60,816 nt of DNA from a virus (taxonomy: Duplodnaviria > Caudoviricetes). Under the pieces are notes generated by a model, which saw nothing but the letters and a program-made list of their open reading frames with translations, was not told where the DNA came from and did not search any database. The stretch spans positions 1 through 60,816 of the IMG/VR virus record IMGVR_UViG_3300020042_005302. One strand, written 5' to 3'. Shown piece by piece: positions 1-14,433 of the stretch; within the stretch, counting starts at the first letter, position 1; every line of letters starts with the position of its first letter. The position numbers and the translations under genes are program-made.

Positions 1-129
1 CTCAATCCGACGATTCTGCAGAGCCTTAGCACCATGCCACAACAGCGCGTTGATGGTGCCGCTCTTTGGGCGCTCCACGCCGAGGACGATGCGGGCCTGC
101 GATGCTTCGATGATTGTCTGAATAGTCAT
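1..129 (-). CDS. Hypothetical protein, truncated by window edge (MTIQTIIEASQARIVLGVERPK...)
   Basis: ATG at 129 on - strand, AGGAG RBS (ctcct 136-140), frame open to position 1; not in ORF track. Confidence 0.6.
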   Translation of the reverse strand, partial: MTIQTIIEASQARIVLGVERPKSGTINALLWHGAKALQNRRIE

Positions 130-385
130 ATCTGACTCCTGTGTAATGCCTATTGTTATGGGGTAGGCTCCCCGTGTCCCTACTCAGTATGTCGAATAGG
201 GTATACCCCTCCGTGGAATCGGACTAAACACGGAACCGCCGGAACATGGCAAGCATGACACTTTGGTCGCACCAGCAGGGGTACCTAGACATAGCACACC
301 GAGAATGAACCCGGTGCACCGTCTAGCACAGGAGATTGACTATCTGGGAGTTTGGTGCATCTCCGGCAAAATGCACCACTATCTA

Positions 386-426
386 GGTAGAGCTGGTGTT
401 TACTAAGGTTCGATTCCTTAGCTACC
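386..426 (+). ncRNA. Mini tRNA-like element, copy 1 (no anticodon arm)
   Basis: GGTAG/CTACC stem, AGC-TGGT-GTT mini hairpin, CTAAGG-TTCGATT-CCTTAG T-arm; related copies at 666 and 2150. Confidence 0.75.
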
Positions 427-456
427 AATCCCAATAGGGAATGAAGGAGAAAGACT

Positions 457-666
457 ATGAATATCAAGGTTGTTATCAAAGCCGTTGCACAAGGAAAGTG
501 CGTCAGTGAGAACACGTACGAGACACCACGTGGCAAGTTTAGCCACAGTGGTCTTGTTGTGTTTGCTGACAGGCACAAGGTCAGTGTATTTAAGAACGCT
601 CAGCTCGTCTGGGCAACTACTGACGAAATCGAAATCAGGCAGGTGCGTTACGCACGTGCTAACTAG
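457..666 (+). CDS. Hypothetical early protein
   Basis: AAGGAG RBS, 69 aa; stop TAG overlaps the next RNA element. Confidence 0.8.
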   Translation: MNIKVVIKAVAQGKCVSENTYETPRGKFSHSGLVVFADRHKVSVFKNAQLVWATTDEIEIRQVRYARAN

Positions 667-706
667 GTAGGCTGGTGCCTTGTAGGGGTTCGATTCCCCT
701 ACCACC
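666..706 (+). ncRNA. Mini tRNA-like element, copy 2
   Basis: GGTAG/CCACC, (G)GC-TGGT-GC(C), TAGGGG-TTCGATT-CCCCTA; followed by hairpin TTCTCC-CGCAT-GGAGAA. Confidence 0.75.
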
Positions 707-742
707 TTTTCTCCCGCATGGAGAACTTAGGAGACAAAGACA

Positions 743-967
743 ATGTTTGAAGGATGGATAAAGGCAAATGGACTCGTTGCAAAGTGGTGGCCGTGTGAAC
801 ACGGTAACACAATGATCAGCGTTGAGAACGCTAATGGTTTCAACAAGCACAAGGTGTACGTTGTGAATCAAGCACAACTGCGAGAGAAGCTCGCGGATGC
901 AGCTCGCACTCTGCCTAATGGCAGTGATGCAGTACCCACGATCATGCAGATCGAAGGAGGCAAGTAA
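743..967 (+). CDS. Hypothetical early protein
   Basis: TAGGAG RBS; TAATG coupling to next ORF. Confidence 0.8.
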   Translation: MFEGWIKANGLVAKWWPCEHGNTMISVENANGFNKHKVYVVNQAQLREKLADAARTLPNGSDAVPTIMQIEGGK

Positions 968-1182
968 TGAGAAGAGACAGGACTAACATCGTATGGTTTG
1001 GCAACACCTACTTTTACAAGGATGAACTGTTCGTAACCGCATGCATCATCGCCATCGCTTTGATCGGTATGATCTGTGTACAGGTTGGTCGCAATATGGA
1101 CGCTGAGGTAGAGCGTCAACGACAGGTGGAAATGACTGAGATTGCCAACGATAAGGCAATCAACAAGGAGGTTACCAAATGA
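967..1182 (+). CDS. Small single-pass membrane protein
   Basis: Hydrophobic LFVTACIIAIALIGMICV; GGAGG RBS. Confidence 0.75.
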   Translation: MRRDRTNIVWFGNTYFYKDELFVTACIIAIALIGMICVQVGRNMDAEVERQRQVEMTEIANDKAINKEVTK

Positions 1183-1460
1183 CAGTCTACATTGCAGACT
1201 TTCGTAAGGGTGAGTGGAAGGTGTATGCCAACAAAGGGCGTACACCTATCGTAGTTCCTGACTGGGCAACACATGTCCAGTTCGGACAAGGGTTCGTCAC
1301 ATTTAAAGGTGGCGATCGTGTGGAAACTGAAGGTACAGCAGAGACCACTGGTTGGAATGGGTGGTCTCTTGTTCCTGCAATGAGCGCAGGAATTTCACGT
1401 CCCGGCACATGGGACAACACCATTGAGCGTTCGTACTTGATTGAAAGAGAAAGTAAATGA
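1179..1460 (+). CDS. Hypothetical early protein
   Basis: AGGAGG RBS, ATGA overlap. Confidence 0.8.
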   Translation: MTVYIADFRKGEWKVYANKGRTPIVVPDWATHVQFGQGFVTFKGGDRVETEGTAETTGWNGWSLVPAMSAGISRPGTWDNTIERSYLIERESK

Positions 1461-1570
1461 ACAGAAAAATAACACAAGAACAATATCAACGGGATCTCGT
1501 TGATATCTTCATCCACTTACTATGGATTCTTTTATTCATCATCGGAGTTACATCGGAGTTTTACCTATGA
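1457..1570 (+). CDS. 37-aa membrane peptide (MNRKITQEQYQRDLVDIFIHLLWILLFIIGVTSEFYL)
   Basis: ATGA overlaps at both ends; hydrophobic helix; below ORF-track cutoff. Confidence 0.6.
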   Translation: MNRKITQEQYQRDLVDIFIHLLWILLFIIGVTSEFYL

Positions 1571-2154
1571 ACATGACAATCAACAAGACTCGCATCCGCC
1601 CATCGATCTCGGTTAGCCCTGACCGGATACACGAAGAGGACGATTATGGGTGGAGGCATAAGACTAATCACTACGACATGATCGATCACGAGGTATGTAA
1701 CCTTATTAGAGATCACGTAATCTTATACAATGACGTGCAAGCTGCAATTAAAACCGGTAATACCGCTTTACCTGTATATGATAAACAAAGATTTACACGA
1801 GGTGGAAATTACTTCAAGTGTGCTTTCGTAGCAGGTCGCCTTGATCGTGACTATGGCAAAGCACTTTACTGGCTACGCAAAGCATGGGCATGCTTTGACT
1901 TTGATGGGCACCTCATCATAAAGGATGAGAGCAATGAAGACTCTTACATCTGGTTAACTACAGATATCATTGGCGATTACGACTGGAAGATAGCTGCTAC
2001 AGTTGTGACACGCAGCTTCCTTGGTAAGTCAGAAACACACACACAGATAGGTGTAATCAAAGAGGAACCAGATCTCACACCAGTAACGATACGAGTTGAA
2101 GCATTCAATCGTTACATCGGAATCGAACACGATAAATATCAAGCAATTAGGTAG
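1567..2154 (+). CDS. Hypothetical protein (start moved from 1522)
   Basis: GGAG RBS before ATG 1567 and ATGA overlap with the upstream peptide. Confidence 0.75.
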   Translation: MNMTINKTRIRPSISVSPDRIHEEDDYGWRHKTNHYDMIDHEVCNLIRDHVILYNDVQAAIKTGNTALPVYDKQRFTRGGNYFKCAFVAGRLDRDYGKALYWLRKAWACFDFDGHLIIKDESNEDSYIWLTTDIIGDYDWKIAATVVTRSFLGKSETHTQIGVIKEEPDLTPVTIRVEAFNRYIGIEHDKYQAIR

Positions 2155-2191
2155 AGCTGATGCTAGTCCGAGGTTTGATTCCCCGGCTACC
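2150..2191 (+). ncRNA. Mini tRNA-like element, copy 3
   Basis: GGTAG/CTACC, AGC-TGAT-GCT, CCGAGG-TTTGATT-CCCCGG; followed by hairpin TTCTCC-CTCGT-GGAGAA. Confidence 0.72.
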
Positions 2192-2253
2192 CTTTCTCCC
2201 TCGTGGAGAACATTGGCTGACAACCTACTGTCAATGAGAAAGCAACTATCGAT

Positions 2254-2466
2254 ATGAAGAAAGAGAAAGAAGCAATGGACAAGGCACGACTCGCTGTCCA
2301 TGAATACTATTGGGCACAAACTGACGATAATATACTCGTTCGCTGCCGCAAGCAAAGACAACTCGTCGAAGAGTTGGAACGTGCAGAGAAAGCATACAAA
2401 GAAGCGTACGCCAAGTCCGTACGTGACACATTTCTACAACTAGGAGAATGTTATGAAGCGGTATGA
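2254..2466 (+). CDS. Hypothetical coiled-coil protein
   Basis: 70 aa, charged helical pattern, in operon. Confidence 0.7.
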   Translation: MKKEKEAMDKARLAVHEYYWAQTDDNILVRCRKQRQLVEELERAEKAYKEAYAKSVRDTFLQLGECYEAV

Positions 2467-2869
2467 ATGTGGGTTTGGTAAGAAGCGTGTGGAGATCACA
2501 CTCAATGCAGGTTATGCACTCAAAGGTATTGATCCTGCAAGCATTGAACAGCAATGCAATGAAATATGTGAGGCACTACTGCACACATATGAATTCAGAC
2601 ACCTTGAGACAGATGCACAGTGGTCGTTCGAGACCAAGAAAGTAAATCTCTTTCAAGTAAAATTTACCTACGATACACACACAGGCAAGTACAGAGAGTC
2701 ACTCCAAGTACCTCCTATGGTGTACTTCCACGTTGCCTTGGAAGGTAGGGTAGCCCTACACACAGAAGGCAAGGCAAGCTGTCCAGATACAGCTTGTGGG
2801 CATCTCCGGCCAGCCCTCTACAAACATCTGCCGGATTATCTAATGATTACAGAATTCGAGGTTATCTAA
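2453..2869 (+). CDS. Hypothetical protein
   Basis: AGGAG RBS, 138 aa. Confidence 0.75.
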   Translation: MKRYECGFGKKRVEITLNAGYALKGIDPASIEQQCNEICEALLHTYEFRHLETDAQWSFETKKVNLFQVKFTYDTHTGKYRESLQVPPMVYFHVALEGRVALHTEGKASCPDTACGHLRPALYKHLPDYLMITEFEVI

Positions 2870-3183
2870 TGCAACCAGTTTACACAGCTAAAGAACTAGC
2901 ACAGATCGAACGCATCCGACAACGAGCAATCGCACGAGCAGAGCGAAAGCCCAAGCCTAAGCTTTTCCTTGAGCGACTCAATAAGTCTGAGTACAAGTAC
3001 CTTGTCGCAGCGGTTGGACGTGAACTCATATGCAAATCAACAGGCATCACTAGTGCACAGTCATACTCTAGTGATCCGTGTGCAGAGAAGATGCTTGTTG
3101 CGCTTGATGTCAGCCCACAAGAACACGGAGTCATTCTCAGGTTCGCCAAAATGGTAGCAGACAAGCAGTTCAAGCTGTCATAA
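2869..3183 (+). CDS. Hypothetical protein (start MQPVY)
   Basis: GAGG RBS and TAATG coupling at 2869. Confidence 0.7.
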   Translation: MQPVYTAKELAQIERIRQRAIARAERKPKPKLFLERLNKSEYKYLVAAVGRELICKSTGITSAQSYSSDPCAEKMLVALDVSPQEHGVILRFAKMVADKQFKLS

Positions 3184-3193
3184 GATGCCAAAT

Positions 3194-3310
3194 ATTGAGG
3201 GAGTCAAATTTTACACCCCCTCAATTATTACCGGGGAGGAGGGGTCAGATTTTACCCCCCTCATTACATTGAACAATAATCATATGAACAATATGATTGT
3301 TACGACAATC
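3194..3310. repeat. Iteron-like repeats plus AT-rich dyads, candidate replication origin
   Basis: Two related units GAGGG(A)GTCARATTTTAC(A)CCCCCTCA; TGAACAATA x2; dyads AATCATAT/ATATGATT and GATTGT/ACAATC. Confidence 0.55.
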
Positions 3311-3329
3311 CAGTTAGGAGTTAGTTGAT

Positions 3330-3554
3330 ATGGCTAAGAAGCAAGTAGAGAAAGATATTCGCATCGAATATCCATCAAGGAAGACCGTAGATGGCTCATA
3401 CAAAGCCAAGTGGGGAGTCTATGAGTACGTCACACTCGAAGACGGAACAGTAGACAGAAAATTCCTACAAGAGTTTGATTACAGAGACGCCGCTGTTGAG
3501 GCGTACCCAGATGCAACATTTAAACCAAGCGGATTCAAGAACACAGAACTATGA
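3330..3554 (+). CDS. Hypothetical protein
   Basis: TAGGAG RBS, 74 aa. Confidence 0.8.
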   Translation: MAKKQVEKDIRIEYPSRKTVDGSYKAKWGVYEYVTLEDGTVDRKFLQEFDYRDAAVEAYPDATFKPSGFKNTEL

Positions 3555-3865
3555 GACTACAAGTAGGCACAAAAGTACGAAACGTACGCAGACCAGACGT
3601 CATCGGCGTCATCACATCAATGAATGCACCCAACAATAAATGGATGGTAAGACCAGAAGACCTTAGAGTTATGGTCAGATATCCACGCATGACACTGTTG
3701 TCCAATGGCAAATGGAAAGGAGGTGAACTCGACGAACTACCAGCTGACCTTCTCCCTACTGGAGAAAAGATCCCGGAAGCATTTGAATCATATAAACGTA
3801 GCGGTGACGAAGGTGGCGTCGGCGCACGAATAGCAGCACAAAAAAGAAAGAGAACGCGGAAATGA
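3551..3865 (+). CDS. Hypothetical protein, possible SH3/KOW-like N-terminus
   Basis: LQVGTKVR...GVI motif; ATGA overlap. Confidence 0.65.
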   Translation: MRLQVGTKVRNVRRPDVIGVITSMNAPNNKWMVRPEDLRVMVRYPRMTLLSNGKWKGGELDELPADLLPTGEKIPEAFESYKRSGDEGGVGARIAAQKRKRTRK

Positions 3866-3975
3866 TTATAACTATATGCATCAGCATTGTATTCATATCC
3901 ATCCTGTTTCTACTAGGATGGTTTTTTAATGCAATAGATATCGCACAGGAAGAAATAGACATCAACAATGAGTAA
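3862..3975 (+). CDS. 37-aa membrane peptide (MIITICISIVFISILFLLGWFFNAIDIAQEEIDINNE)
   Basis: ATGA overlap, N-terminal TM helix, fills the gap between ORFs. Confidence 0.6.
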   Translation: MIITICISIVFISILFLLGWFFNAIDIAQEEIDINNE

Positions 3976-4357
3976 CATGATTACCCCACAGCAACTTGCA
4001 CAAGACGTACTGAGAGCCTATGAACGGCAAGACGGAATGATTACTAAGGTCGAGTTCCACAATGCCTCTAATTTCCGAAGCAAGCGACGCGTTAACATCG
4101 ATGGCACGATCGATATTTACTTGATTATGCATTATGAATTCAGGACTGCTGCCCAGTATCGCATCACACTACAAGTGTGGGATGACAAGTGGCAGATCAA
4201 GTCTGAAGGCTTTCTAGATGAAGTCAATGTTGAATACAACAACGATACACACAAGGCCCCAACAACGTTTATGATTCTCAAATCTTGGGCAGAATTGTTT
4301 GTAGATGAAGTACTTAGACTCAAGACAGTTGAAGGCCACGGGTTCATAGCCGACTAA
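3968..4357 (+). CDS. Hypothetical protein
   Basis: 129 aa ORF in operon. Confidence 0.75.
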   Translation: MSNMITPQQLAQDVLRAYERQDGMITKVEFHNASNFRSKRRVNIDGTIDIYLIMHYEFRTAAQYRITLQVWDDKWQIKSEGFLDEVNVEYNNDTHKAPTTFMILKSWAELFVDEVLRLKTVEGHGFIAD

Positions 4358-4363
4358 CACAAC

Positions 4364-4392
4364 GTGAGGGGTGCGTCTCACTAACAACGCAC
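4364..4392 (+). promoter_or_regulatory. Repeated H-type pseudoknot element, copy 1
   Basis: GTGAGG-G-GTGCG-TCTCAC-TAACAA-CGCAC, intergenic. Confidence 0.7.
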
Positions 4393-4405
4393 AGAAAGAG
4401 ACACA

Positions 4406-4612
4406 ATGACCAAAGACGATTACAACTGGATGATCGTGTGTGAATGGGTGGGTCAGATGCGAGCATTCTCAGCAGTGTTCAGCATGCCATTTGAACTACC
4501 AATGCCGTTCGAGCGCAAGTATCTTGACAAACTCGTTGCATTCATGAACGAACACAACAACAACGCAATCAGGGCACTCAATGCCACACGCACAAACACA
4601 GAGGAAAACTAA
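4406..4612 (+). CDS. Hypothetical protein
   Basis: AGAAAGAG RBS-like sequence, 68 aa. Confidence 0.7.
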   Translation: MTKDDYNWMIVCEWVGQMRAFSAVFSMPFELPMPFERKYLDKLVAFMNEHNNNAIRALNATRTNTEEN

Positions 4613-4938
4613 TGCCACCATTACATCATCATAAAAGAATCATTCTTAGCTTTGCATATCTTCATATCCACCCCGGTGGTGGATTGGAGAAAGCTATCTT
4701 GTTAGCTCCAAGCTTTCAACGATTTCTTGATCGCGAAGCACGTCAACACTGTGCTGAGTTACTAGACTTTATCGATGCTCATGTGCCACATGATGCACGT
4801 AACAGACAAGGTTTTGACCTTTGGCACAACACAGACCCTACAGAAGATGAGCGAATTGTTTTTAAACAATGGCTTGATTCAATTACGCCAATACCACGAC
4901 AGACAGAATGGGAGGTAATAGATACAAGTAATGGCTAG
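4612..4938 (+). CDS. Hypothetical protein
   Basis: GAGG RBS, TAATG coupling. Confidence 0.75.
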   Translation: MPPLHHHKRIILSFAYLHIHPGGGLEKAILLAPSFQRFLDREARQHCAELLDFIDAHVPHDARNRQGFDLWHNTDPTEDERIVFKQWLDSITPIPRQTEWEVIDTSNG

Positions 4939-5179
4939 ATACACTTACCACAATCAGATTTATGACTTTCAAGGCCAAGCAATTGGCCTTCCTGATGTTT
5001 ATACAACTGCATTAGCTGCACAAAAAATCGCTGGGCTTCACGTTTATTGTGATCCAACAATCATGCACATCAGGATCACACGATGTCTTGAACATACATA
5101 CGAGTTCAAACCGTATGCGATTGTTTACATGAACATTGTTACTGACAAACCTGTAAGTTCTAAAAGGAAAATATTTTAA
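4931..5179 (+). CDS. Hypothetical protein
   Basis: GGAGG upstream, overlapping ORF. Confidence 0.7.
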   Translation: MARYTYHNQIYDFQGQAIGLPDVYTTALAAQKIAGLHVYCDPTIMHIRITRCLEHTYEFKPYAIVYMNIVTDKPVSSKRKIF

Positions 5180-5434
5180 ATGAAATGCGATTGGGATGTT
5201 GTAATGGGTTCTTTAGTTCTTGAAGAACTACTCGAAGAGAACTTGATAACTAAAGATCATTACAACCATATGTGGGAAATCTTTAAAGATAAACAAGACG
5301 ATGTCAACTGGGTTTTACTTGACATGTCTGAGGTGTTATTGAATCTTGAACAAGATGATTGTGACAAGATCATTACCTACCTAAAAAAAGAGTGTAACCT
5401 CAAGAGTTTCACTGAAGCTAAGATCGCTATCTAA
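5180..5434 (+). CDS. Hypothetical acidic protein
   Basis: AAGGA RBS, abuts previous stop. Confidence 0.7.
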   Translation: MKCDWDVVMGSLVLEELLEENLITKDHYNHMWEIFKDKQDDVNWVLLDMSEVLLNLEQDDCDKIITYLKKECNLKSFTEAKIAI

Positions 5435-5441
5435 TGTTTGT

Positions 5442-5470
5442 GTGAGGGGTGCGCCTCACTAACAACGCAC
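5442..5470 (+). promoter_or_regulatory. Repeated H-type pseudoknot element, copy 2
   Basis: GTGAGG-G-GTGCG-CCTCAC-TAACAA-CGCAC (G-U becomes G-C in stem 1). Confidence 0.7.
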
Positions 5471-5486
5471 AGAAAGAAACATAATC

Positions 5487-5978
5487 ATGTCAGTTAAGCT
5501 TTACACACAGTATTTCCGCGACGCTCTTCTCGGTGTCCCTGCCAAAGTTGCAGACGGTACATTGAGTTCGTACGGTGGTTACTACACAACAGAGCACACA
5601 GATACCGTCGAACTCAACGGGCATTTCATCCAGATGGAATATAGTTTGCGGATGGATGTAGCCAATGGTCAAGAGAAAACACTACACCCTGTTCCTCTTG
5701 TACAGATTGAAGTCACAATGACACTGCGTCCTGAGAAGGATGTCCGTGCTACAGCTTCAATCATGAGTAAAGTAATCAAGGTTCAGTTGAACTCTGAGAC
5801 TCTTGAAGAGCAGATTGATGAAGCGATCCAGACACTAGAACGTGTCATCATTGACGTCAAGTTGCCAACTATAGCCTTTGACTTCTGGAAGTATGTTGCT
5901 ACTGCAATGCCAGACTTTGAGAAGCAGGTTAGCAAAGCGGTTGTAACTAACCATACTCGTCTGTCCTACAAGGACTAG
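5487..5978 (+). CDS. Hypothetical protein
   Basis: 163 aa, flanked by pseudoknot copies 2 and 3. Confidence 0.8.
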   Translation: MSVKLYTQYFRDALLGVPAKVADGTLSSYGGYYTTEHTDTVELNGHFIQMEYSLRMDVANGQEKTLHPVPLVQIEVTMTLRPEKDVRATASIMSKVIKVQLNSETLEEQIDEAIQTLERVIIDVKLPTIAFDFWKYVATAMPDFEKQVSKAVVTNHTRLSYKD

Positions 5979-5984
5979 TTAGAT

Positions 5985-6013
5985 GTGAGGGGTGCGTCTC
6001 ACTAACAACGCAC
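5985..6013 (+). promoter_or_regulatory. Repeated H-type pseudoknot element, copy 3
   Basis: Identical to copy 1. Confidence 0.7.
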
Positions 6014-6039
6014 AACTACACAATACAAAGGACAACACA

Positions 6040-6273
6040 ATGTATCGACAATGGTATGAACGCAGAATCAAACTTAATGATGGATATAAAATACATATTA
6101 ATTGCAAACAACTCGTTAGTTATGATGAGGACGAAAAGTTGTTTGAATGTGCATTAATCACACCAGATGAACATATAGATATGGATTCAATAACATACAA
6201 TTTAGACTTTCATCAAGTAGCAGAATATATCAACAAAGCTAAGGAAAAACATAATGACGATAGGAACAGCTGA
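6040..6273 (+). CDS. Hypothetical protein (start MYRQW)
   Basis: AAAGGA RBS before ATG 6040; track start 5992 falls inside the repeat. Confidence 0.7.
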   Translation: MYRQWYERRIKLNDGYKIHINCKQLVSYDEDEKLFECALITPDEHIDMDSITYNLDFHQVAEYINKAKEKHNDDRNS

Positions 6274-6502
6274 ATATATTAGGCATCACGTATATCGTGA
6301 TTGTCCTAACTACTCGTTTCCACCATGTAAGTATGGACACACGATGTGTTCATGCACAGATGAGGCCGGTGGCCCATGCTCAGATGAGTTAGAAGCAGAG
6401 AACGATCAACGAGTTGATGTGTTTTATGCAGCTCGCATTATTGATGCTATTTACGTCAAGAACAACGATAACTACGAACTACTTATATGGGATGAAGAAT
6501 AA
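6254..6502 (+). CDS. Cys-rich hypothetical protein
   Basis: CPN..PCKYGH.MCSC...GPC; AAGGA RBS. Confidence 0.7.
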   Translation: MTIGTAEYIRHHVYRDCPNYSFPPCKYGHTMCSCTDEAGGPCSDELEAENDQRVDVFYAARIIDAIYVKNNDNYELLIWDEE

Positions 6503-6747
6503 TGGAACACAAGATTTGTTTAGTTAGCGTCGATATGTTTAATGCGCCCGGAATGCTACGTTGGGCGCGTCACTTCTACCGCATGCCGTCATGCTCCAAG
6601 CAGGACAAGAAGTATTTCTTGGGTGTAATGGAAGCATGGATACCTGACAAGAAGACAGCCAAGTATTGCCTCGAATGTCCAGACGATGTCATTGAATGGG
6701 ACTACGAAGAACGGTCTGCGACAATCACAGTAAAGGTAACTAAATAA
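6502..6747 (+). CDS. Hypothetical protein
   Basis: TAATG coupling. Confidence 0.7.
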   Translation: MEHKICLVSVDMFNAPGMLRWARHFYRMPSCSKQDKKYFLGVMEAWIPDKKTAKYCLECPDDVIEWDYEERSATITVKVTK

Positions 6748-7146
6748 ATGACTGACAACATAATGATAGAAGCATGGGATGAGATTATGGCTGATTCACA
6801 AGAAGCCGAAGAATGTATCGTATCCATGTATAGTGTCGAGCGTTATTACGGTGGCCCAGAGGAAGGAGGTTGGTGGGGCAACCTGTTCATACTCAGGAAA
6901 TATGTAAGATGTAGTAATCGTGATGCAGCTGAACAACTACGACGGAAACTTCAAGAACGATGTGAGGAACTAAACAAAGAAGAACAACAACGAGATAGCG
7001 AAGACTGTTTGCGTCACTGCGAACGTGCTTGGTCGCGAGGTGAGGATGTAGATGACTACGGATATGACGGACCAAGTACATATCATGTACTCATTGAAAA
7101 GTTTCCCGGACAGAATCAACAAACAGAACGATCACACTACGAATAA
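6748..7146 (+). CDS. Conserved phage early protein (YGGPEEGGWW motif)
   Basis: Motif recurrent in phage hypothetical proteins, recalled rather than searched. Confidence 0.75.
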   Translation: MTDNIMIEAWDEIMADSQEAEECIVSMYSVERYYGGPEEGGWWGNLFILRKYVRCSNRDAAEQLRRKLQERCEELNKEEQQRDSEDCLRHCERAWSRGEDVDDYGYDGPSTYHVLIEKFPGQNQQTERSHYE

Positions 7147-7158
7147 AGGATAACAATT

Positions 7159-7386
7159 ATGTATTACGATTGGGACGAAGACGATGTTCCTTCTGATGAA
7201 GACGAGATGATTGAACAAATGTTTGAGCATCCACACGGTGCTTCAGCGTTGCGCAGAGCAACTAAAAGTAATCCACGCAATCTGCCGTGCCCGACATGTG
7301 GCGAGCCTAACAGGCTTACACCAATGGATGTATGGAAAGGATATCAATGCGACGAATGCGCTAATCAAGCAGAACGAGGCTGGTAA
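7159..7386 (+). CDS. Zn-ribbon protein
   Basis: CPTC...CDEC; AAGGA RBS. Confidence 0.75.
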   Translation: MYYDWDEDDVPSDEDEMIEQMFEHPHGASALRRATKSNPRNLPCPTCGEPNRLTPMDVWKGYQCDECANQAERGW

Positions 7387-7907
7387 TGCCACTAAAAAAA
7401 CTGACACCTGAACAAACAGCATCAATACGGCATCAAGCAAATAATGGCGTAAGTGTATTAGCACTTGCAGCTAAATACAACATATCTACACAACACATAT
7501 ACAGAATCAAAAGCAACGAAAGACGAGATAGAAAGAAAAAACAAATGAGTACATATAACGGCTGGACAAATTACGCAACATGGTTATTTTATTTACATCA
7601 CCAAGAAAATGTAGAGCACTGGTATTACGATGAGCCAGCAAGCACACGCAAAGACCTTGATGAAACACATCTTCAAAATTATTTTGAAGAGATGTATAGC
7701 GAACTAATGCATGATGTTGCGAACACTTACATCACTGATGTTTTCAATAACGAGTTGCGTGATGTGAATTGGAGGGAGGTAATGAACACACTACCAAAAG
7801 ATAACGAATCGTCTGACGATGGATATGACGCCAACTGGACAGAAGAAGGCGCAATAACAAACTACCTAGATCATGTAGCAGAAAATAAAGAAAGAGAAAG
7901 AAACTAA
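7386..7907 (+). CDS. HTH domain fused to YNGWTNY-type acidic domain
   Basis: N-terminal GVSVLALAAKYNISTQHIYRI HTH; second domain begins MSTYNGWTNYATW. Confidence 0.65.
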   Translation: MPLKKLTPEQTASIRHQANNGVSVLALAAKYNISTQHIYRIKSNERRDRKKKQMSTYNGWTNYATWLFYLHHQENVEHWYYDEPASTRKDLDETHLQNYFEEMYSELMHDVANTYITDVFNNELRDVNWREVMNTLPKDNESSDDGYDANWTEEGAITNYLDHVAENKERERN

Positions 7908-8800
7908 TGACCGCACAAGAATACCTCGCTAAGTTTGGGCTGGATGCAAATCCGGCCCTTTTTACCAATGTACGTAACGGCAAAGACATGAAGCCAAAGT
8001 ACAACTCATACTGTATCTATGATGGAGTTAGTCAACTAGACAGACGATCTCGCATTATATGCGTCATATCTAACTGTGAGACCAACAATAATGACTGGAA
8101 CATCAAGACTGGTGACATGATCCAGTCTTACATCATCATGCGTAATGTGCATCCACAGGCTGCCATCGACAAGCTCCTTGATGGCTGTATCTGTGGTAAC
8201 TGCACACACCGCAAGCGACGTAAGCGCAACAATCGCACAGGCAAAATCAAAGATGTTCGTACGTGCTATGTCAATATCGGCAAGGGTACATCAGCTGTAT
8301 GGGAATCATTCCGAAAAGGCAACATACCAATTGTGTCCAGTACTGTTGCCTCTACCATTCAGGTAGTTGCTGGTAAGAAACTACGCATGGGTACATACGG
8401 TGACCCAGTTGCCGTACCATTCCCAATCTGGGGTGACATGCTACGCTATGAGCTTGGTCATACTGGCTATACACATCAATGGCGTATGCCAATAGCCAAG
8501 CCGTTTCGTGGTGTCCTTCAGGCATCATGTGACTCATATGTTGATCGATGGGAAGCCAAGGAAGCTGGCTGGGGCACATTCCTAGTCCGTCCACATGACG
8601 GCTACATTGACAAGCGTCACACAGCTTATGCTCGTGGCGCCAAACAATGCCCAAGTGATCCATTCATCAACGAGATGCGAGCAATGCGCAATATGCTACC
8701 AATGCATACCACATGCGACACTTGTCCTGCATCTCTACGCTGTGATGGCGATAGCGATATTGTCATCCGTGCCCACGGTTCAGCTGCGCTGTGGGTTTAA
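7907..8800 (+). CDS. Cys-rich putative Fe-S / radical-SAM-like protein (gp88-like phage family)
   Basis: CICGNC...CYV, LRMGTYGD, GYTHQW, ASCD, C-terminal CDTC..C and AHG. Confidence 0.6.
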   Translation: MTAQEYLAKFGLDANPALFTNVRNGKDMKPKYNSYCIYDGVSQLDRRSRIICVISNCETNNNDWNIKTGDMIQSYIIMRNVHPQAAIDKLLDGCICGNCTHRKRRKRNNRTGKIKDVRTCYVNIGKGTSAVWESFRKGNIPIVSSTVASTIQVVAGKKLRMGTYGDPVAVPFPIWGDMLRYELGHTGYTHQWRMPIAKPFRGVLQASCDSYVDRWEAKEAGWGTFLVRPHDGYIDKRHTAYARGAKQCPSDPFINEMRAMRNMLPMHTTCDTCPASLRCDGDSDIVIRAHGSAALWV

Positions 8801-8821
8801 TTAAACACAAGGTAAATAAAC

Positions 8822-9235
8822 ATGTTTTATTCAATATGCGAAGAAGACGAATGGTCCCAAGATTGTTGGGACCAAGCCGGTCACTACACAAAGGATGGCG
8901 AGTGTCACTCGCCATCTAACGGTGTGTACTTGGCCTACTACATAGCTCGACGTATCTTTGCAGACATCAGCGTTAGATATACAGACGAAGGTGTAAAGCG
9001 ATTCATTCAGGAAGAATGCGACAAAGGGAAATGCCGTGTTGATTCTGATGAGATTGATACATTCTGCAAAGCTATACAAGATGCGTATGATGCTGAGACC
9101 GTAGAAGAATTCAATGAGGCGCTATGGGATTTTGTTCATGATAGCGACTTCAGTGAGTGGAATGACATATTTTGTGGGAATGACCTTGCTTATGCATGCA
9201 AGTTAGAAGAACCAGAAGGGTGGCCAGTGCCATGA
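8822..9235 (+). CDS. Acidic hypothetical protein
   Basis: AAGGT RBS, 137 aa, D/E-rich. Confidence 0.75.
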   Translation: MFYSICEEDEWSQDCWDQAGHYTKDGECHSPSNGVYLAYYIARRIFADISVRYTDEGVKRFIQEECDKGKCRVDSDEIDTFCKAIQDAYDAETVEEFNEALWDFVHDSDFSEWNDIFCGNDLAYACKLEEPEGWPVP

Positions 9236-9525
9236 CAGTAGAAGAGATTGATGAAGACGAAAATAATTTCATGAATGAGTTGCGATGGCTGCGGGAGAAA
9301 TACCCGCAGTTCTACGTTGAAGCATGGGGTCCATATGACTTTGCACTGCAACTTAATAATGATGCATATATACATGGAGATGCACTTGCAGAGGCTGCAG
9401 CAGACAATTGGGATGAATGGGCAGGTGTAGTCGAAATATTACACGACACATTTGATGCTCATGTTGGTACAAACTGGGATCGCATACGCGGAGCAATAGA
9501 GGAGATTAAAAGAGATGCAAAATGA
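9232..9525 (+). CDS. Acidic hypothetical protein (start MTVEE)
   Basis: ATGA overlap. Confidence 0.7.
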   Translation: MTVEEIDEDENNFMNELRWLREKYPQFYVEAWGPYDFALQLNNDAYIHGDALAEAAADNWDEWAGVVEILHDTFDAHVGTNWDRIRGAIEEIKRDAK

Positions 9526-9844
9526 TTACACACCTGAACACATGACGTTCACCATTCAATCCATCAACACAGAGTGGTGGTACATGATGATGATGGACAT
9601 GATTCAGTACAACGATTGGGTCAAGAATGTGCGTACAGTTGAACATACAGATACAAACTGGGTGCTTGAGATTATTGATGATGAATGTGAAACACATCTC
9701 ATATCAGATCTAAACCTATTGGAACATTTACGTACGTGCTGGGCAAAAGGCGATCGTATGTTTGTAGAACCACAGAACATTGACTACGACTTTATTGACT
9801 GCATAGTACAAGAACTATGTTTTGGTGAGTTAGTTTACGGATAA
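9515..9844 (+). CDS. Acidic hypothetical protein
   Basis: AGGAG RBS; C-terminus D.IVQ..CFGELVYG. Confidence 0.75.
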   Translation: MQNDYTPEHMTFTIQSINTEWWYMMMMDMIQYNDWVKNVRTVEHTDTNWVLEIIDDECETHLISDLNLLEHLRTCWAKGDRMFVEPQNIDYDFIDCIVQELCFGELVYG

Positions 9845-9855
9845 GGAATAACACA

Positions 9856-10356
9856 ATGCCTAATTGGTGCGATAACACATTAACAGTATCTGGTGACAAT
9901 ATCGATGACGTGAAGAAATGGGTAGCAGAAAACACAAAGAAAAACGACTATGGAATTGACTGCGTAGACTTCAATGGCTCAGTGCCAATGCCAGACGAGG
10001 AAGATGGTAACGAATGGTACAAGTGGTCTATGACTAACTGGGGTACTAAGTGGAATGCTTGTTATTGTTGTGTGCTAGAAGGCAACGACAATGAAGCACG
10101 TTATAATTTTGACACCGCATGGGGGCCACCCGGTGCATGGTTCATTACTATGAGTGCTAAGTATCCCAAGCTTAACTTTGTAATGCACTATTCAGAACCG
10201 GGCATGTGTTTTGCTGGCACTATGTCTAGACAAGATGGCTACTTTGATGACGTGTATCGCGAAAACGAAGACATTACTGATGATGATAAAGAAAATATGG
10301 GCTGGACACTATGCGAGGCATGCGGTGGATGGGAGCAAGAATGCATGTGTGATTGA
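9856..10356 (+). CDS. DUF1281/YubB (Api92-like) ferredoxin-like fold protein
   Basis: MPNWCDN, NWGTKW, FDTAWGPP and EPGM.FAG signature motifs. Confidence 0.85.
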   Translation: MPNWCDNTLTVSGDNIDDVKKWVAENTKKNDYGIDCVDFNGSVPMPDEEDGNEWYKWSMTNWGTKWNACYCCVLEGNDNEARYNFDTAWGPPGAWFITMSAKYPKLNFVMHYSEPGMCFAGTMSRQDGYFDDVYRENEDITDDDKENMGWTLCEACGGWEQECMCD

Positions 10357-10372
10357 TTACCTACGGTATAAT
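10356..10372 (+). promoter_or_regulatory. Phage promoter/operator ATTACCTACGGTATAAT
   Basis: Perfect TATAAT; identical copies at 56903-56919 and 58839-58855 on - strand. Confidence 0.75.
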
Positions 10373-10393
10373 CAGTTACGTAATTAATCAATA

Positions 10394-10435
10394 TTTGTGG
10401 AGTCTGAATTACAGTTTAGGCTCCACAAACTTTTT
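10394..10435 (+). terminator. Intrinsic terminator-like hairpin
   Basis: TTTGTGGAG...CTCCACAAA stem followed by CTTTTT. Confidence 0.6.
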
Positions 10436-10448
10436 ACTAAGGAGATTC

Positions 10449-10856
10449 ATGTTAGAAGAATTATCAAATTTAGTTAACGCAATGTCTGTCACTAGCGAGT
10501 ACCGCAATGGATGGAAACAAATTGAAACAACCATCGCAACAAACGGTATTGTCACACTGAACTGGCCAAAGCTTAAGCTAAAGATCATTTCATTCAAGAT
10601 GCCTGTCAATTGGAATGGATCAACAGAGGATGCGGAGTCAATCGTTACAATTGATACTCTGTATTACACTGATAGCACAGAGTCGGAAATCGCGTGGCGC
10701 ACCAACAGTAATCATGTTCAGCATGATTGGGAAACACTGCAGCGAGTTCGTGTGTCAGATATCGTTGATCGATTTTTTGATGGCTCTTGGACACCACCAT
10801 GGAAATGTGGATTCTGTTCAAGCCGTCATGCTGGCAAATTGAAACCTAAGTTCTGA
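10449..10856 (+). CDS. Hypothetical protein (start MLEEL)
   Basis: AAGGAG RBS before ATG 10449; C-terminal CGFC...H. Confidence 0.7.
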   Translation: MLEELSNLVNAMSVTSEYRNGWKQIETTIATNGIVTLNWPKLKLKIISFKMPVNWNGSTEDAESIVTIDTLYYTDSTESEIAWRTNSNHVQHDWETLQRVRVSDIVDRFFDGSWTPPWKCGFCSSRHAGKLKPKF

Positions 10857-11464
10857 TGCCATTGCCAACATCCAGAGTTAATCGGCCCGTGCTCTACGAA
10901 CTAGAGTACGGGTCAGAGTCCTTGTATGTACGCAGTGGTGAGACAGCTGTTGCTATATACAAAGAATGGGTGGCACATGCCATCAGCGCAAAAGACACAT
11001 GTGACCTGACACTGTACGCTTTGTTGAGTCCAACACCATCAAAGGTTTACACTGTTACACAGATAACACTATTGCTAAATGGAGGATGGGAGTCAGCGAA
11101 AATGCAGCACTACTCAATACGTGATGGCGAGATAGTTGATGTTTACATTGGCAAACGCGCACACAGATATGAGTATGGTCATTACAAATATAGAAAAACA
11201 AGGAGGATGAACAAAGACTACGCAGAGGTTTTCACTCTGTTCTGTGCAGATAAAAACCTTGTAGAGATGTGTATAAGATCTCCTAACTACGGCATCTTTT
11301 ACGGTGCTCTTACATTGGAGAATCAAACAGATGAAATTCAAAGAATCAAAAAGTACTCACGGCAGCTATACAATTTGTGTAATAGGCGTGGCAGATATAT
11401 TGAATCCAAAGCCCCTCTACAAATGCGGGTGCGAAAGTTGCCAGCTGGCATACGGAATCAATAG
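10856..11464 (+). CDS. Hypothetical protein
   Basis: TGATG coupling, 202 aa. Confidence 0.7.
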   Translation: MPLPTSRVNRPVLYELEYGSESLYVRSGETAVAIYKEWVAHAISAKDTCDLTLYALLSPTPSKVYTVTQITLLLNGGWESAKMQHYSIRDGEIVDVYIGKRAHRYEYGHYKYRKTRRMNKDYAEVFTLFCADKNLVEMCIRSPNYGIFYGALTLENQTDEIQRIKKYSRQLYNLCNRRGRYIESKAPLQMRVRKLPAGIRNQ

Positions 11465-11521
11465 ATCAATAGCCGCACTTGCAAGTTTAGCGATAAAGGT
11501 CTTTGGGTATCTATTAATTAT

Positions 11522-11926
11522 ATGGCTGTACAACTAAGCGAGAAGGACTTGCAGAAGCAAGTCTTCACTGTGTTGACTAACCTTGGTTATCATGTTTTTG
11601 AAACAGGGAAAGCAAGATCACAACAAAAGTGCAAGGCATGTGGCGCCAAGCAATACGCAACAGGATGGCAGGGCAACTCACCCGGCCTTCCTGATTTGTA
11701 CATCCACTCTAAACAATGGCCACGTAGCGTAGCTATTGCCATTGAACTAAAGACAGAGAAAGGAGCAATAAGAGATACACAGAAAACAATTAATGAACTA
11801 GGATACACACACATTTGCAGATCGATAGGGTCTGTATTGAGAGCAATACTCACCATCGAGATGCACATGAACAACGAATCAAAGGTTGATCAACTTAAAA
11901 AGGTTATTGATATAAATGGATTTTGA
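11522..11926 (+). CDS. VRR-NUC family nuclease / Holliday junction resolvase with Zn knuckle
   Basis: SEKDLQ...GLPDL...IELKTEKG..Q PD-(D/E)xK motif; CKAC. Confidence 0.85.
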   Translation: MAVQLSEKDLQKQVFTVLTNLGYHVFETGKARSQQKCKACGAKQYATGWQGNSPGLPDLYIHSKQWPRSVAIAIELKTEKGAIRDTQKTINELGYTHICRSIGSVLRAILTIEMHMNNESKVDQLKKVIDINGF

Positions 11927-12581
11927 AGTTTGTAATTTAGAAAACGCTGACTATGTGTTCAAGCAGAATCATTGCGATACGTTTTACGTCGGTGTTGTTG
12001 AAGTCAATGAATCAGATCAATATGCTATTCTGACCAATGCTCACTGGAAGTATCTATTCATTGGTGACAGTGAGCAAGACATCATTGATGACATGGACAA
12101 GTACTCAATACCAATTGTCCCACAAACGTACATCAAGATACCTCTTGTACAGATCATGCGTACATGGCGCTCAGTTGTATACCGTGGGCACAGACTGTTA
12201 GTACTTGGCTGTAACGATGACATGGCAAGTTCCTTGCTTGCGTTTCCCAGTGGCCCCGTTTATCCATCTGTTCATCAAGGTGTTTTGTATGTACGCATGA
12301 TTCCCGGCGATGATTCGTCAATCTATCTGCATCAAGGGCATCCACTAATTGCTGGCTCTTATGATGATTTGGTTGCTCAAATTATACAGATCAGCCAAGA
12401 TGTAGCTCTTGGTATTTACAATGGTACACACGAGGTTGTTGGTAGCGACCTGTATAGGTTTTGGAAACGTCACAAAACCGCTATCTATTTCGATAATGTA
12501 TTAGACTTGGTAATCAGTATCAAGAACAGTGCAGCATATCGGGAAATGCAAATCCAGAAAGAGAAAGAAAAAAATGTTTAA
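11916..12581 (+). CDS. Hypothetical protein
   Basis: 221 aa ORF in operon. Confidence 0.7.
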   Translation: MDFEVCNLENADYVFKQNHCDTFYVGVVEVNESDQYAILTNAHWKYLFIGDSEQDIIDDMDKYSIPIVPQTYIKIPLVQIMRTWRSVVYRGHRLLVLGCNDDMASSLLAFPSGPVYPSVHQGVLYVRMIPGDDSSIYLHQGHPLIAGSYDDLVAQIIQISQDVALGIYNGTHEVVGSDLYRFWKRHKTAIYFDNVLDLVISIKNSAAYREMQIQKEKEKNV

Positions 12582-13155
12582 CCCACGAGACCACTTTATT
12601 AACCTCAAAGGCAAGCAATACTTGCCAGTCGCAGCTCGCATTGCTTGGTTTAGAGAAGACCATGTAGACTGGACGATTAATACATATCCTGTGCCCGATC
12701 TTTCGGGCACAGACTACTGTACCTTTGCTGCTGAAATCCTAGATGATGAAGGCAAACTAATTGCCAAGGCACACAAAACGGAACACGAGAAACACTTTGC
12801 TGACTATCGTGAGAAGGCAGAAACGGGCGCCATTGGGCGAGCACTGGCCTTGTGTGGGTATGGCACACTGTTCGCTCAAGAGTTAGAAGAACCTGTTACA
12901 CCAGCTGGCGATATGCGCATAGTAGACGCACCACAACCAACAAAGACAGTACTTACTCCGGGCAAACAGTTTGCTTATGAGTGCAGACGTATATGGGGTG
13001 CTTACATCACGCCAGCTGACATGAAGCGTGTGTTCTTTAAGTTAGCTGGACACAATGACACTAGTGACGCGAATCTAAAGTTGGTCATTGAAGTTCTCAT
13101 GGGATTCAACACACCGGAAGAAGCAGAGTCGGTGTTCTTGGCAGAGGAGGAGTAA
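12574..13155 (+). CDS. Single-strand annealing recombinase (Sak/Rad52-like)
   Basis: KGKQYLPVAARIAWF and EKAETGAIGRAL..CGYG motifs; adjacent to Gam-like gene. Confidence 0.65.
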   Translation: MFNPRDHFINLKGKQYLPVAARIAWFREDHVDWTINTYPVPDLSGTDYCTFAAEILDDEGKLIAKAHKTEHEKHFADYREKAETGAIGRALALCGYGTLFAQELEEPVTPAGDMRIVDAPQPTKTVLTPGKQFAYECRRIWGAYITPADMKRVFFKLAGHNDTSDANLKLVIEVLMGFNTPEEAESVFLAEEE

Positions 13156-13156
13156 G

Positions 13157-13717
13157 ATGGATCTAAGCAAGTTCGATATTATCGACGACAGTTATTATGA
13201 AATAGAAACCGGCGAGTACGCTGGTCCAGTTGGCGGTTGGCTTGGCGAGGAACTGGCATCAGAAGATCAAGTACTTCTCGCAATGCAAAAACTAATGCAA
13301 TACGAAACAGAACTTAAAGCTCAGCAACTTGCAATGCAATCTGTTGTAGAACGCTGTAAATCTATGGTCAAAGATAAAGAACGTAGAGTACAGTGGATTC
13401 AAGATAAGTATGGCGCACAGATTGCAGACTACGCTAAACAACAGCTCACCGGCAAATCCAAAACGTGGAAGTGTCCGTGGGGTCAAGTGTCTTGGCGCAC
13501 ATCATCGCCAACGTTTTCAATACTTGATGAAGAAAAAGCAGCGCTTGTCATTCCGCTATCGCTTGATGCAATCAAGATAGAAACTAAAGTTTACAAGAGC
13601 AAGATACCTAAAGAAGTGCAACTTACACTTGTTGATGAATATCCTGAGCTGTTCAGTATGACAGAACCTGTTGAAAACTTTAGCATAAAGTCATTGACAG
13701 CAACCGAGACTGAATAG
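13157..13717 (+). CDS. Mu Gam-like host-nuclease inhibitor / DNA end-binding protein
   Basis: Coiled coil then KSKTWKCPWGQVSWR; GGAGG RBS. Confidence 0.65.
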   Translation: MDLSKFDIIDDSYYEIETGEYAGPVGGWLGEELASEDQVLLAMQKLMQYETELKAQQLAMQSVVERCKSMVKDKERRVQWIQDKYGAQIADYAKQQLTGKSKTWKCPWGQVSWRTSSPTFSILDEEKAALVIPLSLDAIKIETKVYKSKIPKEVQLTLVDEYPELFSMTEPVENFSIKSLTATETE

Positions 13718-13771
13718 TAAGATTGACTGCTCCGTAAACTATATCAACACGGAGAAAACAACTACCAAATG

Positions 13772-13804
13772 AAGGACCACGGACATCAACACCGTGGTCC
13801 TTTT
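13772..13804 (+). terminator. Terminator/attenuator-like hairpin before replication genes
   Basis: AAGGACCACGG-ACATCAACA-CCGTGGTCCTT-TT. Confidence 0.6.
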
Positions 13805-13818
13805 ACTCCTAACAAGGA

Positions 13819-14424
13819 ATGAGAATGAGTGACCAATTAGTTTATATCAATAGCATTTCCAACTCTGTCAACATATCGGAAGTCGGAATGTCCTTTAGTA
13901 ATGATCTTGAATATGATGAATGGTATCGGTTGATGCAGACACTTGGGCGATTAGAGACTGCATTTCAATTTGCCATTGGAGACGCCCTCAATTATGGGAT
14001 GTCAAAGTATGGCGAGAAGTACTCAAATGCAATCGACGCTACAGGATTTGCGTATCAATCGCTGGCCAACTGGACATGGGTCAGTAAAAGCGTTCCACTT
14101 GACAATCGAGTCAGTGGATTAACGTGGTCTCACCACAGAGCTGTTGCAACGTGTTCGGCTTCTGAGCAACAATCACTTTTGTTGTCTGCAAAAGCACGTG
14201 GTATTAGTGCTTCCGATTTACTTGCTGAAGTACAAGGTGAACCAGAAGAGAAGAAGCAACCCAAAGCCGTATCTATTCCTCCGGGCTGGACAGTAGATGA
14301 TGCCAACAAAGCTTTGGAAATGATCAGTTCCTACAAAGATGGACTCAATGCGCTTTGCGACGCAATAGAAACTAAGACTGAAGCAGTGCAAAGATATTGC
14401 ACTGAATGCCCACACAATAACTAG
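13819..14424 (+). CDS. LmbU-like DNA-binding protein
   Basis: FAIGDALNYG..KYGEKY...QSLAN..WVS...R...LTWSHHRAVA pattern. Confidence 0.65.
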   Translation: MRMSDQLVYINSISNSVNISEVGMSFSNDLEYDEWYRLMQTLGRLETAFQFAIGDALNYGMSKYGEKYSNAIDATGFAYQSLANWTWVSKSVPLDNRVSGLTWSHHRAVATCSASEQQSLLLSAKARGISASDLLAEVQGEPEEKKQPKAVSIPPGWTVDDANKALEMISSYKDGLNALCDAIETKTEAVQRYCTECPHNN

Positions 14425-14433
14425 AGGTAAGAA

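Follow-up and report, generated by a model that had tools for sequence, protein, structure and literature searches.

The −1 frameshift pseudoknots of luteovirids are compact H-type structures in which loop 1 is short, loop 3 is rich in A and a junction base is left unpaired; they lie 5–8 nt from the A-site codon. The preQ1-I aptamer (RF00522) is a small pseudoknot with an A-rich 3' loop just 5' of a ribosome-binding site. In T4-type phages, promoter-early stem-loops consisting of a host-type promoter and a hairpin are repeated regulatory cassettes at module borders. Here we describe a 29-nt element that is present in three copies in a phage of the Caudoviricetes (IMG/VR record IMGVR_UViG_3300020042_005302). 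The window that we analyzed is the whole viral record of 60,816 b, which is estimated to be 97% complete. The element represents a new, widespread family of phage RNA motifs, which probably folds into a full pseudoknot with two helices directly behind stop codons.

A preliminary description of this DNA had compared the element to luteoviral frameshift knots, preQ1-I aptamers and the gene 32 operator of phage T4. The similarity in shape was borne out for all three, but each of these systems has a defining feature that is missing here. The phage knot has the compact H-type fold, the loops, the junction base and the 5–8 nt spacing in common with the luteovirid knots, but it lacks a slippery heptamer, the upstream codon is a stop codon, no long alternative frame follows, and it belongs to a DNA phage with several copies per genome. 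Size, layout, the A-rich 3' loop and the position before a ribosome-binding site are as in preQ1-I, but there is no covariance-model match, no conserved junction base that could read a ligand and no queuosine gene nearby, and stem 2 of the phage knot is stable. Identical short repeats between small early genes at gene-shuffling borders also resemble the T4-type cassettes, but no promoter is evident here and the element is a pseudoknot. The leader of gene 32 in T4 and T2 contains a pseudoknot of two coaxial helices before a purine- or A-rich ribosome-binding region; it is present as a single copy 67 nt upstream of the start of the autoregulated gene for a single-stranded DNA-binding protein and nucleates cooperative binding (PMC3014915). 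The element described here is also a phage mRNA pseudoknot at such a site, but there are 2–3 copies of it, and the genes that start 8–26 nt away are unrelated and have no family matches. In a second lineage of phages (see below), the knot follows rather than precedes a gene of the DUF669 family, which we take to be linked to single-stranded DNA binding.

Two other systems are similar in placement or in the order of parts. The malE-malF intergenic element and the puf intercistronic stem-loop are stable sense-strand structures in a short gap after an upstream cistron. They do not terminate transcription and are proposed to stop 3'-5' exonucleases after a cut further downstream, and the malE-malF structure protects malE after such a cut (PMC5927463). 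The phage element, a sense-strand structure just after a cistron, is placed as in this intercistronic 3' protective class. In contrast to those hairpins, which have no fixed sequence, it is a 29-nt pseudoknot with stem 2 and the loops fixed across unrelated phages, and its function is inferred only. At the 3' ends of MALAT1 and MEN-beta, a triple helix is followed by a tRNA-like RNA that is cut by RNase P, which is the order of parts in the second lineage and in contig L179; that system is eukaryotic and nuclear, and its triple helix captures an A-rich tail (PMC8457004). For the phage knot, in contrast, a triplex character is surmised from loop composition, RNase P cleavage is putative, and the copies in the window have no adjacent tRNA-like element.

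The pattern GTGAGGGGTGCGYCTCACTAACAACGCAC matched the window at 4364–4392, 5442–5470 and 5985–6013, all on the plus strand. No further copy was found in the 60,816 nt when up to 3 or up to 9 mismatches were allowed, and none of 100 dinucleotide shuffles of the window contained any match. In each copy, positions 1–5 are complementary to positions 14–18 and positions 8–12 to positions 25–29. These exact matches and the two interleaved complementary repeats agree with the preliminary description. In copy 1 (4364–4392), to which the family covariance model gave its top score of 51.9 bits, stem 1 is formed by 4364–4368 with 4377–4381 and stem 2 by 4371–4375 with 4388–4392. Loop 1 (GG) is at 4369–4370, the junction base (T) at 4376 and loop 3 (TAACAA) at 4382–4387. 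Copy 2 (5442–5470, 49.9 bits) and copy 3 (5985–6013, 51.9 bits) have the same layout, with C at 5454 and T at 5997 as junction bases; this position 13 is the sole variable base among the three copies. In copies 1 and 2 the identity extends about 15 nt past the motif. The geometry by itself is not rare, since a scan of the window for any double helix of the arrangement 5-2-5-1-5-6-5 gave 17 matches on both strands and 20 shuffles gave 3–15. Among these matches, only the three copies were G+C-rich, free of G-U pairs and intergenic. The evidence for the element is its repetition and conservation, not its geometry alone.

To follow the conservation, we pooled 171 distinct instances from viral and metagenome contigs, in which an instance was counted as real only if all five stem-1 pairs could form. 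They comprise 13 versions of stem 1. When the pattern was applied to viral contigs with stem 1 left free, every match had a complementary stem 1, including the new versions GGGAG/CTCCC, GCGTG/CACGT and AGGAG/CTCCT. The same scan of metagenome contigs resulted in 115 matches with 12 stem versions: 102 had five of five pairs, 13 had three or fewer, and none had four. Among 43 distinct 29-mers, four of the five stem-1 pairs were changed on both sides, and five pairs in all showed double changes. The covariation score of this set was 0.348 as compared to a shuffle mean of 0.106; it was reached in 0 of 500 shuffles, and all slid registers scored lower. Pairs 3-16 and 5-14 were always G-C or C-G. 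In a scan that freed positions 1, 8, 18 and 29, pair 1-18 was G-C or C-G and never mismatched. It is very probable from these comparisons that stem 1 forms in RNA.

Support for stem 2 came from its closing pair. In the scan just mentioned, pair 8-29 was G-C, G-U or A-U and never A-C, and the 171 instances had G-C in 118, G-U in 25, A-U in 28 and A-C in none. Independence of the two positions would predict about 19 cases of A-C (Fisher 9e-18, relatedness of the sequences being ignored). A-U was seen in five stem-1 lineages, and among chance matches A-C occurred in 3 of 17. A scan with stem 2 left free revealed no new version of this stem, and freeing pairs 3-16 and 10-27 in viral contigs also gave nothing new. 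Possible C9-G28 variants (L087, L084/L088) are of doubtful family membership. The covariance search in related phages that had been proposed earlier thus showed four of five pairs covarying in stem 1, but in stem 2 only the closing pair; the four other pairs of stem 2, being invariant, speak neither way. As said above, we consider formation of the full pseudoknot probable.

The resulting anatomy consists of a stem 1 of 5 bp, loop 1 (GG), stem 2 of (G/A)TGCG with CGCA(C/T), one unpaired junction base and a 6-nt loop 3. Loop 3 was TAACAA in 109 and TGACAA in 44 of the 171 instances, with rarer variants in the others (some scan patterns restricted loop 3). Loops of 2 nt over 5 bp of deep groove and of 6 nt over 5 bp of shallow groove fit, by a rule of thumb, and in nested folding each hairpin reached about −6 kcal/mol alone, a value that does not include the pseudoknot energy. 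This anatomy differs from the preliminary description, which had stem 1 with six pairs, loop 1 with a single nucleotide and a T/C switch at position 13 in support of pairing. Loop 1 has two nucleotides (G6 and G7). Position 13 was T in 124, C in 23, A in 23 and G in 1 of the instances, so that A is as common as C; since this position is unconstrained, a sixth pair is not maintained. Loop lengths can shift slightly, since of the two knots on the plus strand of contig L109 (880–908 and 1472–1500) the second, diverged one has a junction of 2 nt, with 3 nt in loop 1 and 5 nt in loop 3. Behind each of the L109 knots lie about 30 conserved nt, similar in both cases, that end in CTGTGTGAGG.

G-U pairs at 8-29, 1-18 and 2-17 were found on the sense strand only and correspond to A-C mismatches on the opposite strand. 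Since they are specific to the sense strand, the fold belongs to RNA and not to a site in double-stranded DNA. It would form in the transcript; formation in the non-template DNA strand is less likely. With the covariation in both helices, the strand-specific pairs support the earlier inference that the repeat is a pseudoknot acting in cis as RNA, and not a site in DNA. The pairing pattern is unusual: stem 2 and the loops are frozen, but stem 1 covaries freely. Such a combination is indicative either of a tertiary fold under exceptional constraint or of some universal partner, for example the ribosome, RNA polymerase or a ribonuclease. The frozen stem 2 and loops are the least explained feature of the element.

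Pattern scans of IMG/VR detected the motif in about 40 contigs of the lineage of the window, which are 60–67 kb when complete. These contigs carry 2–3 copies each, on one strand and clustered within about 1.5 kb, and in five of five complete relatives that were searched whole no copy was present beyond that cluster. Among 87 distinct instances of this lineage only positions 1, 8, 13, 18, 19, 20, 22 and 29 varied; the scan pattern fixed the other positions, and later scans that freed them gave nothing new in the lineage. A protein-based search with the 163-aa gene between copies 2 and 3 retrieved 32 loci, all in motif-bearing contigs already found, and no more distant relatives. The motif remained nearly invariant while this gene drifted, its orthologues being just 29–36% identical in 9 of 10 aligned relatives. 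Instances of the element came from river, lake, marine and bioreactor contigs.

Among 50,697 deposited phage genomes there was no match to the motif (searched as 33 nt) and no DNA match to the 2.4-kb region. The scan of 185,579 prokaryote genomes with the stem-1-free pattern served as negative control for stem-1 pairing: eight matches were found, none of them true, all single, with three or fewer stem-1 pairs and in surroundings that are unrelated and mostly rich in G+C. This prokaryote collection does not contain the element. No Rfam family, the preQ1 classes included, matched the motif at E ≤ 10, and neither ARAGORN nor Rfam called a tRNA or tmRNA in it. A literature search on repeated intergenic phage pseudoknots gave nothing similar among the matches listed, and an 11-letter piece of the motif appeared only in work that, judged by title and abstract, is on unrelated subjects. 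A mimic of a CRISPR repeat was rejected, since the one pattern tested identified no array in the prokaryote genomes and only single matches without stem 1. A likeness of the 3' half of the motif to a transcription antitermination box was also dropped, since this half covaries freely in other lineages.

The position of the knot relative to the upstream stop codon is strongly conserved. Instances lie on the coding strand right after a stop; 162 of the 171 had an upstream open reading frame (ORF) of at least 40 codons on the same strand, and in 150 of these 162 the gap from stop to knot was 5–8 nt. The stop codon was TAA in 100, TAG in 54 and TGA in 8 cases and was followed by T in 125 of 162. 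The last sense codons were non-slippery (ATC 49, GAC 28, AAG 14 and others), and reading on past the stop in frames 0, −1 and +1 gave medians of 8, 9 and 2.5 codons. The gap from the knot to the next start ranged from 2 to 176 nt and was 8–26 nt in 149 of 171 and 62–176 nt in 8 instances. In the window, the copies follow the stops TAA 4355–4357, TAA 5432–5434 and TAG 5976–5978 at distances of 6, 7 and 6 nt, in accordance with the 6–7 nt noticed before, and precede the ATG codons at 4406, 5487 and 6040 by 13, 16 and 26 nt. At a gap of 5–8 nt, the first pair of the knot would lie just beyond the mRNA that is covered by a ribosome with a stop codon in the A site, and termination need not melt it.

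In other phage lineages the knot is found ahead of a tRNA, a tRNA-like element or a terminator. A second lineage has the replication genes AAA_24, DUF669 and DUF3987, and tblastn with the ORFs of the window gave no homologue in the loci fetched from it. Here the knot lies 5–12 nt after the DUF669 gene, and a tRNA-like element starts 3–5 nt after the knot in 7 of 7 sequences folded. In all seven, this element has an acceptor-like stem and a T arm, both with compensatory changes; its insert of about 40 nt is C- and T-rich. In L089 the composite of knot and tRNA-like element occupies 3560–3680 between the DUF669 gene and a DUF3987 primase/helicase-type gene, and the same composite is present in L091, L092, L093, L162, L172 and L081. 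A true tRNA-Asn begins 4 nt after the knot in L179 (2750–2855, minus strand). It opens a gene cluster that also contains tRNA-Ser and tRNA-Thr, and a partial second stretch containing GGGGTGCG follows this first tRNA. L110 and L146 have a hairpin with a U-run, like an intrinsic terminator, about 25 nt after the knot. L079 has a variant knot, which scores 33 bits with the family model and is directly followed by a U-run; it is the only variant that has one. The window copies do not look like intrinsic terminators, as no U-run follows directly and the leaders behind them are A-rich. The contexts in these other lineages suggest that the knot is tied to the end of the upstream RNA and not to the downstream gene, and that it may mark or protect a 3' end that RNase P or termination has made. 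Cleavage of a small pseudoknot in loop 1 by bacterial RNase P has also been reported, but only with a 3' RCCA (PMC12710915); a 3' RCCA is absent from this element.

We tentatively favor a function as nuclease barrier or mRNA-end element that protects the upstream cistron, a reading based on sequence comparison. Each copy would be transcribed within a rightward early polycistronic mRNA and would fold as a compact H-type pseudoknot, with loop 1 (GG) in the deep groove of stem 2 and the A-rich loop 3 (UAACAA) along the shallow groove of stem 1. At 5–8 nt past the stop, just outside the terminating ribosome, the knot would stay folded, and its tight packing would stall processive ribonucleases. 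After a cut farther downstream, the upstream cistron would then retain a protected 3' end, and depending on the host enzymes the downstream cistron may retain a structured 5' end. In the other lineages RNase P presumably cuts at the tRNA or tRNA-like element, and the knot would become the new 3' terminus. The context there favors this nuclease-roadblock or mRNA-end function over the riboswitch and re-initiation readings, while the four alternatives of the preliminary description are not settled by it.

Several points weigh against protection of mRNA ends by a pseudoknot. A plain nuclease barrier would not require stem 2 and loops 1 and 3 to keep the same sequence across lineages; this could mean a protein, the ribosome or a ligand as partner, and our own explanation by internal base triples is putative. 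In the lineage of the window the ribosome-binding site comes immediately after the knot, with no tRNA-like element or terminator there, and the tight spacing to the stop codon may reflect no more than genome compaction. With respect to the fold, four of the five stem-2 pairs are invariant, and since they never vary, the support for stem 2 consists of one covarying pair plus conserved complementarity. The requirement for five of five stem-1 pairs inflates the percentage of paired instances, while the bimodality of the scans and the covariation are unaffected. A river metatranscriptome yielded seven short contigs on 1–17500, the uncovered parts being uninformative, and a second RNA run had no contig on the window and is likewise uninformative. 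Evidence from RNA libraries for the copies is one 204-nt contig over copy 3; it may derive from carried-over DNA and is uninformative about ends.

An invariant stem 2 with invariant loops next to a covarying stem 1 is also the pattern of a specific binding surface. A translational operator or enhancer would use it as a fixed face (loop 1, stem 2 and loop 3) to which a phage or host protein or the 30S binds, tuning initiation at the adjacent site. The close start codon in most instances and a purine-rich or AGGAG-type site often within 0–3 nt of the knot are in line with this, and gene 32 provides a precedent (PMC3014915). We nevertheless consider an operator rather unlikely, since the distance to the start is not conserved, in the eight instances with 62–176 nt a tRNA, a tRNA-like element or a terminator stands between, the downstream genes are mutually unrelated, and the tblastn result for the fetched lineage-2 loci revealed no common phage binder there. 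A device that acts on the terminating ribosome, by blocking post-termination sliding or re-initiation or by stimulating recoding, would explain the 5–8 nt gap, which equals the spacer of frameshift and read-through pseudoknots and would bring the knot up against the mRNA entrance of a ribosome whose A site holds the stop codon. Such a device is distinctly unlikely in view of the use of all three stop codons, the prevalent T after the stop, which is a strong termination context, the non-slippery last codons and the short extensions. Recoding as such, by frameshift or read-through, was rejected on these four grounds. A very small ligand-sensing riboswitch of the preQ1-I type would have a topology and size like those of the smallest known aptamers, with a fixed core and one freely covarying helix just 5' of ribosome-binding sites. 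We regard it as highly improbable: besides the negative Rfam result, the sole junction base is unconstrained, no switch is apparent, as stem 2 is made of five strong pairs and lies clear of the ribosome-binding site, the downstream genes are unrelated and have no assigned function, and no true match exists in the prokaryote genomes scanned.

A signal at the DNA level would be a promoter of a phage RNA polymerase (double-stranded or as N4-type hairpin), an operator or a single-strand initiation site. Three clustered copies before early genes would suit it, the phage encodes a 3733-aa virion-type protein, the palindromic arms could in principle bind a dimer, and part of the motif resembles what we take to be the promoter cores of the T7 group. 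This reading is very unlikely, since the 13 versions of stem 1 stay complementary, which a double-stranded promoter does not need, and since positions 8 and 29 covary across 21 nt without any A-C. G-U is tolerated on the sense strand only, but the template strand is the one that forms an N4-type hairpin. The motif immediately precedes a terminator or stands 4 nt ahead of a tRNA in other lineages, and its instances are confined to the coding strand after a stop. No RNA polymerase gene was found, and the giant ORF had no Pfam match above the cut-off and no PHROG or PDB match; a phage polymerase promoter was rejected on the basis of this result and of the covariation, which opposes a double-stranded site. 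A scan with promoter and terminator consensus sequences found 27 promoter-like sites in the window, fewer than the shuffle mean of 38, and none at the motif. Finally, a small repeated pseudoknot with a fixed face might be a decoy RNA against a host defence nuclease, like the phage mimics of type III antitoxin repeats. It occurs only in viral and metagenome contigs, not in the prokaryote genomes scanned, and is common to phage lineages for which no shared protein was found in the fetched loci. But the copies are dispersed and flank genes instead of being arranged in tandem, a decoy would have no use for the strict placement after stops, and a toxin partner is not known (no PADLOC search was made), so that we give this possibility hardly any weight.

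The idea that the repeats serve as recombination joints was substantiated by comparing 120-nt flanks with those of 139 copies in relatives, for which the identity of unrelated flanks averaged 0.56 and did not exceed 0.65. Among the relatives listed for copy 2, nine had high identity upstream (0.86–0.97) and low identity downstream (0.58–0.67), and three were high on both sides. For copy 3, eight of the listed relatives had 0.87–0.92 upstream and 0.53–0.63 downstream, and one showed the reverse (0.66 upstream, 0.97 downstream). Similarity thus falls to background exactly across copies 2 and 3. The 204-nt contig from the RNA library spans 5885–6014, continues with the different downstream gene of a relative, and diverges exactly at 6014. 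By these flank comparisons the copies are borders of exchangeable gene cassettes. Since they are identical, they would act as crossover points between co-infecting relatives, and we take cassette exchange as a by-product of this identity and not as a selected function.

The copies are located in a rightward block of small and replication genes (about 450 to 16,900), which includes a DnaB-type helicase, a replication-initiator-like protein and a Mu Gam-like protein. Copy 1 lies between an ORF of 129 aa (3968–4357, plus strand), which has no family match, and one of 68 aa (4406–4612, plus strand), whose purine-rich leader AGAAAGAGACACA contains the likely ribosome-binding site. Copy 2 follows an ORF of 84 aa (5180–5434, plus strand). 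The conserved ORF of 163 aa (5487–5978, plus strand) separates copies 2 and 3, and copy 3 precedes an ORF of 77 aa (6040–6273, plus strand), whose slot is occupied by at least five unrelated small genes in relatives. None of nine ORFs around the three copies matched a PHROG family, and among ten ORFs near the copies only two had Pfam matches, which were below threshold. For the 163-aa protein a four-stranded sheet packed on long helices is predicted (pLDDT 88). This fold had no PDB match at E ≤ 0.001, the weak rows being actin-capping protein and RAD52. An assignment to S30AE (hibernation factor) was rejected, because a sub-threshold Pfam match in 1 of 11 orthologues is probably due to chance.

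The structural genes are oriented leftward and include the major head protein, the portal, the large terminase and the ORF of 3733 aa (17693–28894, minus strand), which is the last gene of this block. The latter had no PHROG and no PDB match and only a weak Pfam OB-fold match below the cut-off. Its homologues of 3270–3770 aa are all without a named function, and Atlas pointed, as a lead only, to polyvalent virion proteins (LPD38, MuF_C, LPD39). Two other large ORFs on the minus strand also lacked PHROG matches: one of 1372 aa (51352–55470) had only a sub-threshold Pfam match to DUF6981, and one of 1218 aa (32116–35772) had no Pfam match. A tRNA-Leu (anticodon TAA; 58751–58831, minus strand) was the sole tRNA gene called in the window. 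The nearest deposited relatives of the portal protein (45829–48195, minus strand) are from Microbacterium and Arthrobacter podoviruses, with 23–25% identity. Together with a G+C content of 42% and the river and lake sources, these relatives hint weakly at an actinobacterial host from fresh water.

A second repeated intergenic element, which looks like a T arm, is present at 385–425 and 665–712 (plus strand) and also in relatives (e.g., L037, 5517–5592 and 6191–6266). It consists of a stem of 5–6 bp with compensatory changes and the loop GTTCGATTC, is enclosed by a short stem (GGTG and a partner after the arm) and is preceded by a conserved GCTGGTG. It is placed directly after stop codons and before early genes. 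Rfam gave only a local match to tmRNA/tRNA T arms, and ARAGORN called no gene; the element may be an RNase P-type processing signal. A hairpin GTGCG-TTA-CGCAC with the same arms as stem 2 of the pseudoknot lies at 643–655 (plus strand) within the 3' end of ORF 457–666, 9 nt before the second T-arm-like element.

Our analysis adds a new 29-nt structured RNA family with good comparative support. If the knot is a nuclease barrier right beyond the terminating ribosome, it would explain how neighboring genes in compact phage operons attain different stabilities, and it would provide a very small insulating part for synthetic operons. The link with tRNA-like elements suggests that many phages may punctuate their mRNA in the manner of tRNAs. 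Many uncultured phages might even use a two-module punctuation, in which a tRNA-like minihelix or a tRNA recruits host RNase P and a triplex-type knot, 3–5 nt upstream or alone, caps the new 3' end against exonucleases; at present this is a speculative proposal to which we attach a low probability. If true, such a two-module system would be a bacterial-virus counterpart of the MALAT1 triple helix and mascRNA, and also a compact, portable part for the stabilization of mRNA.

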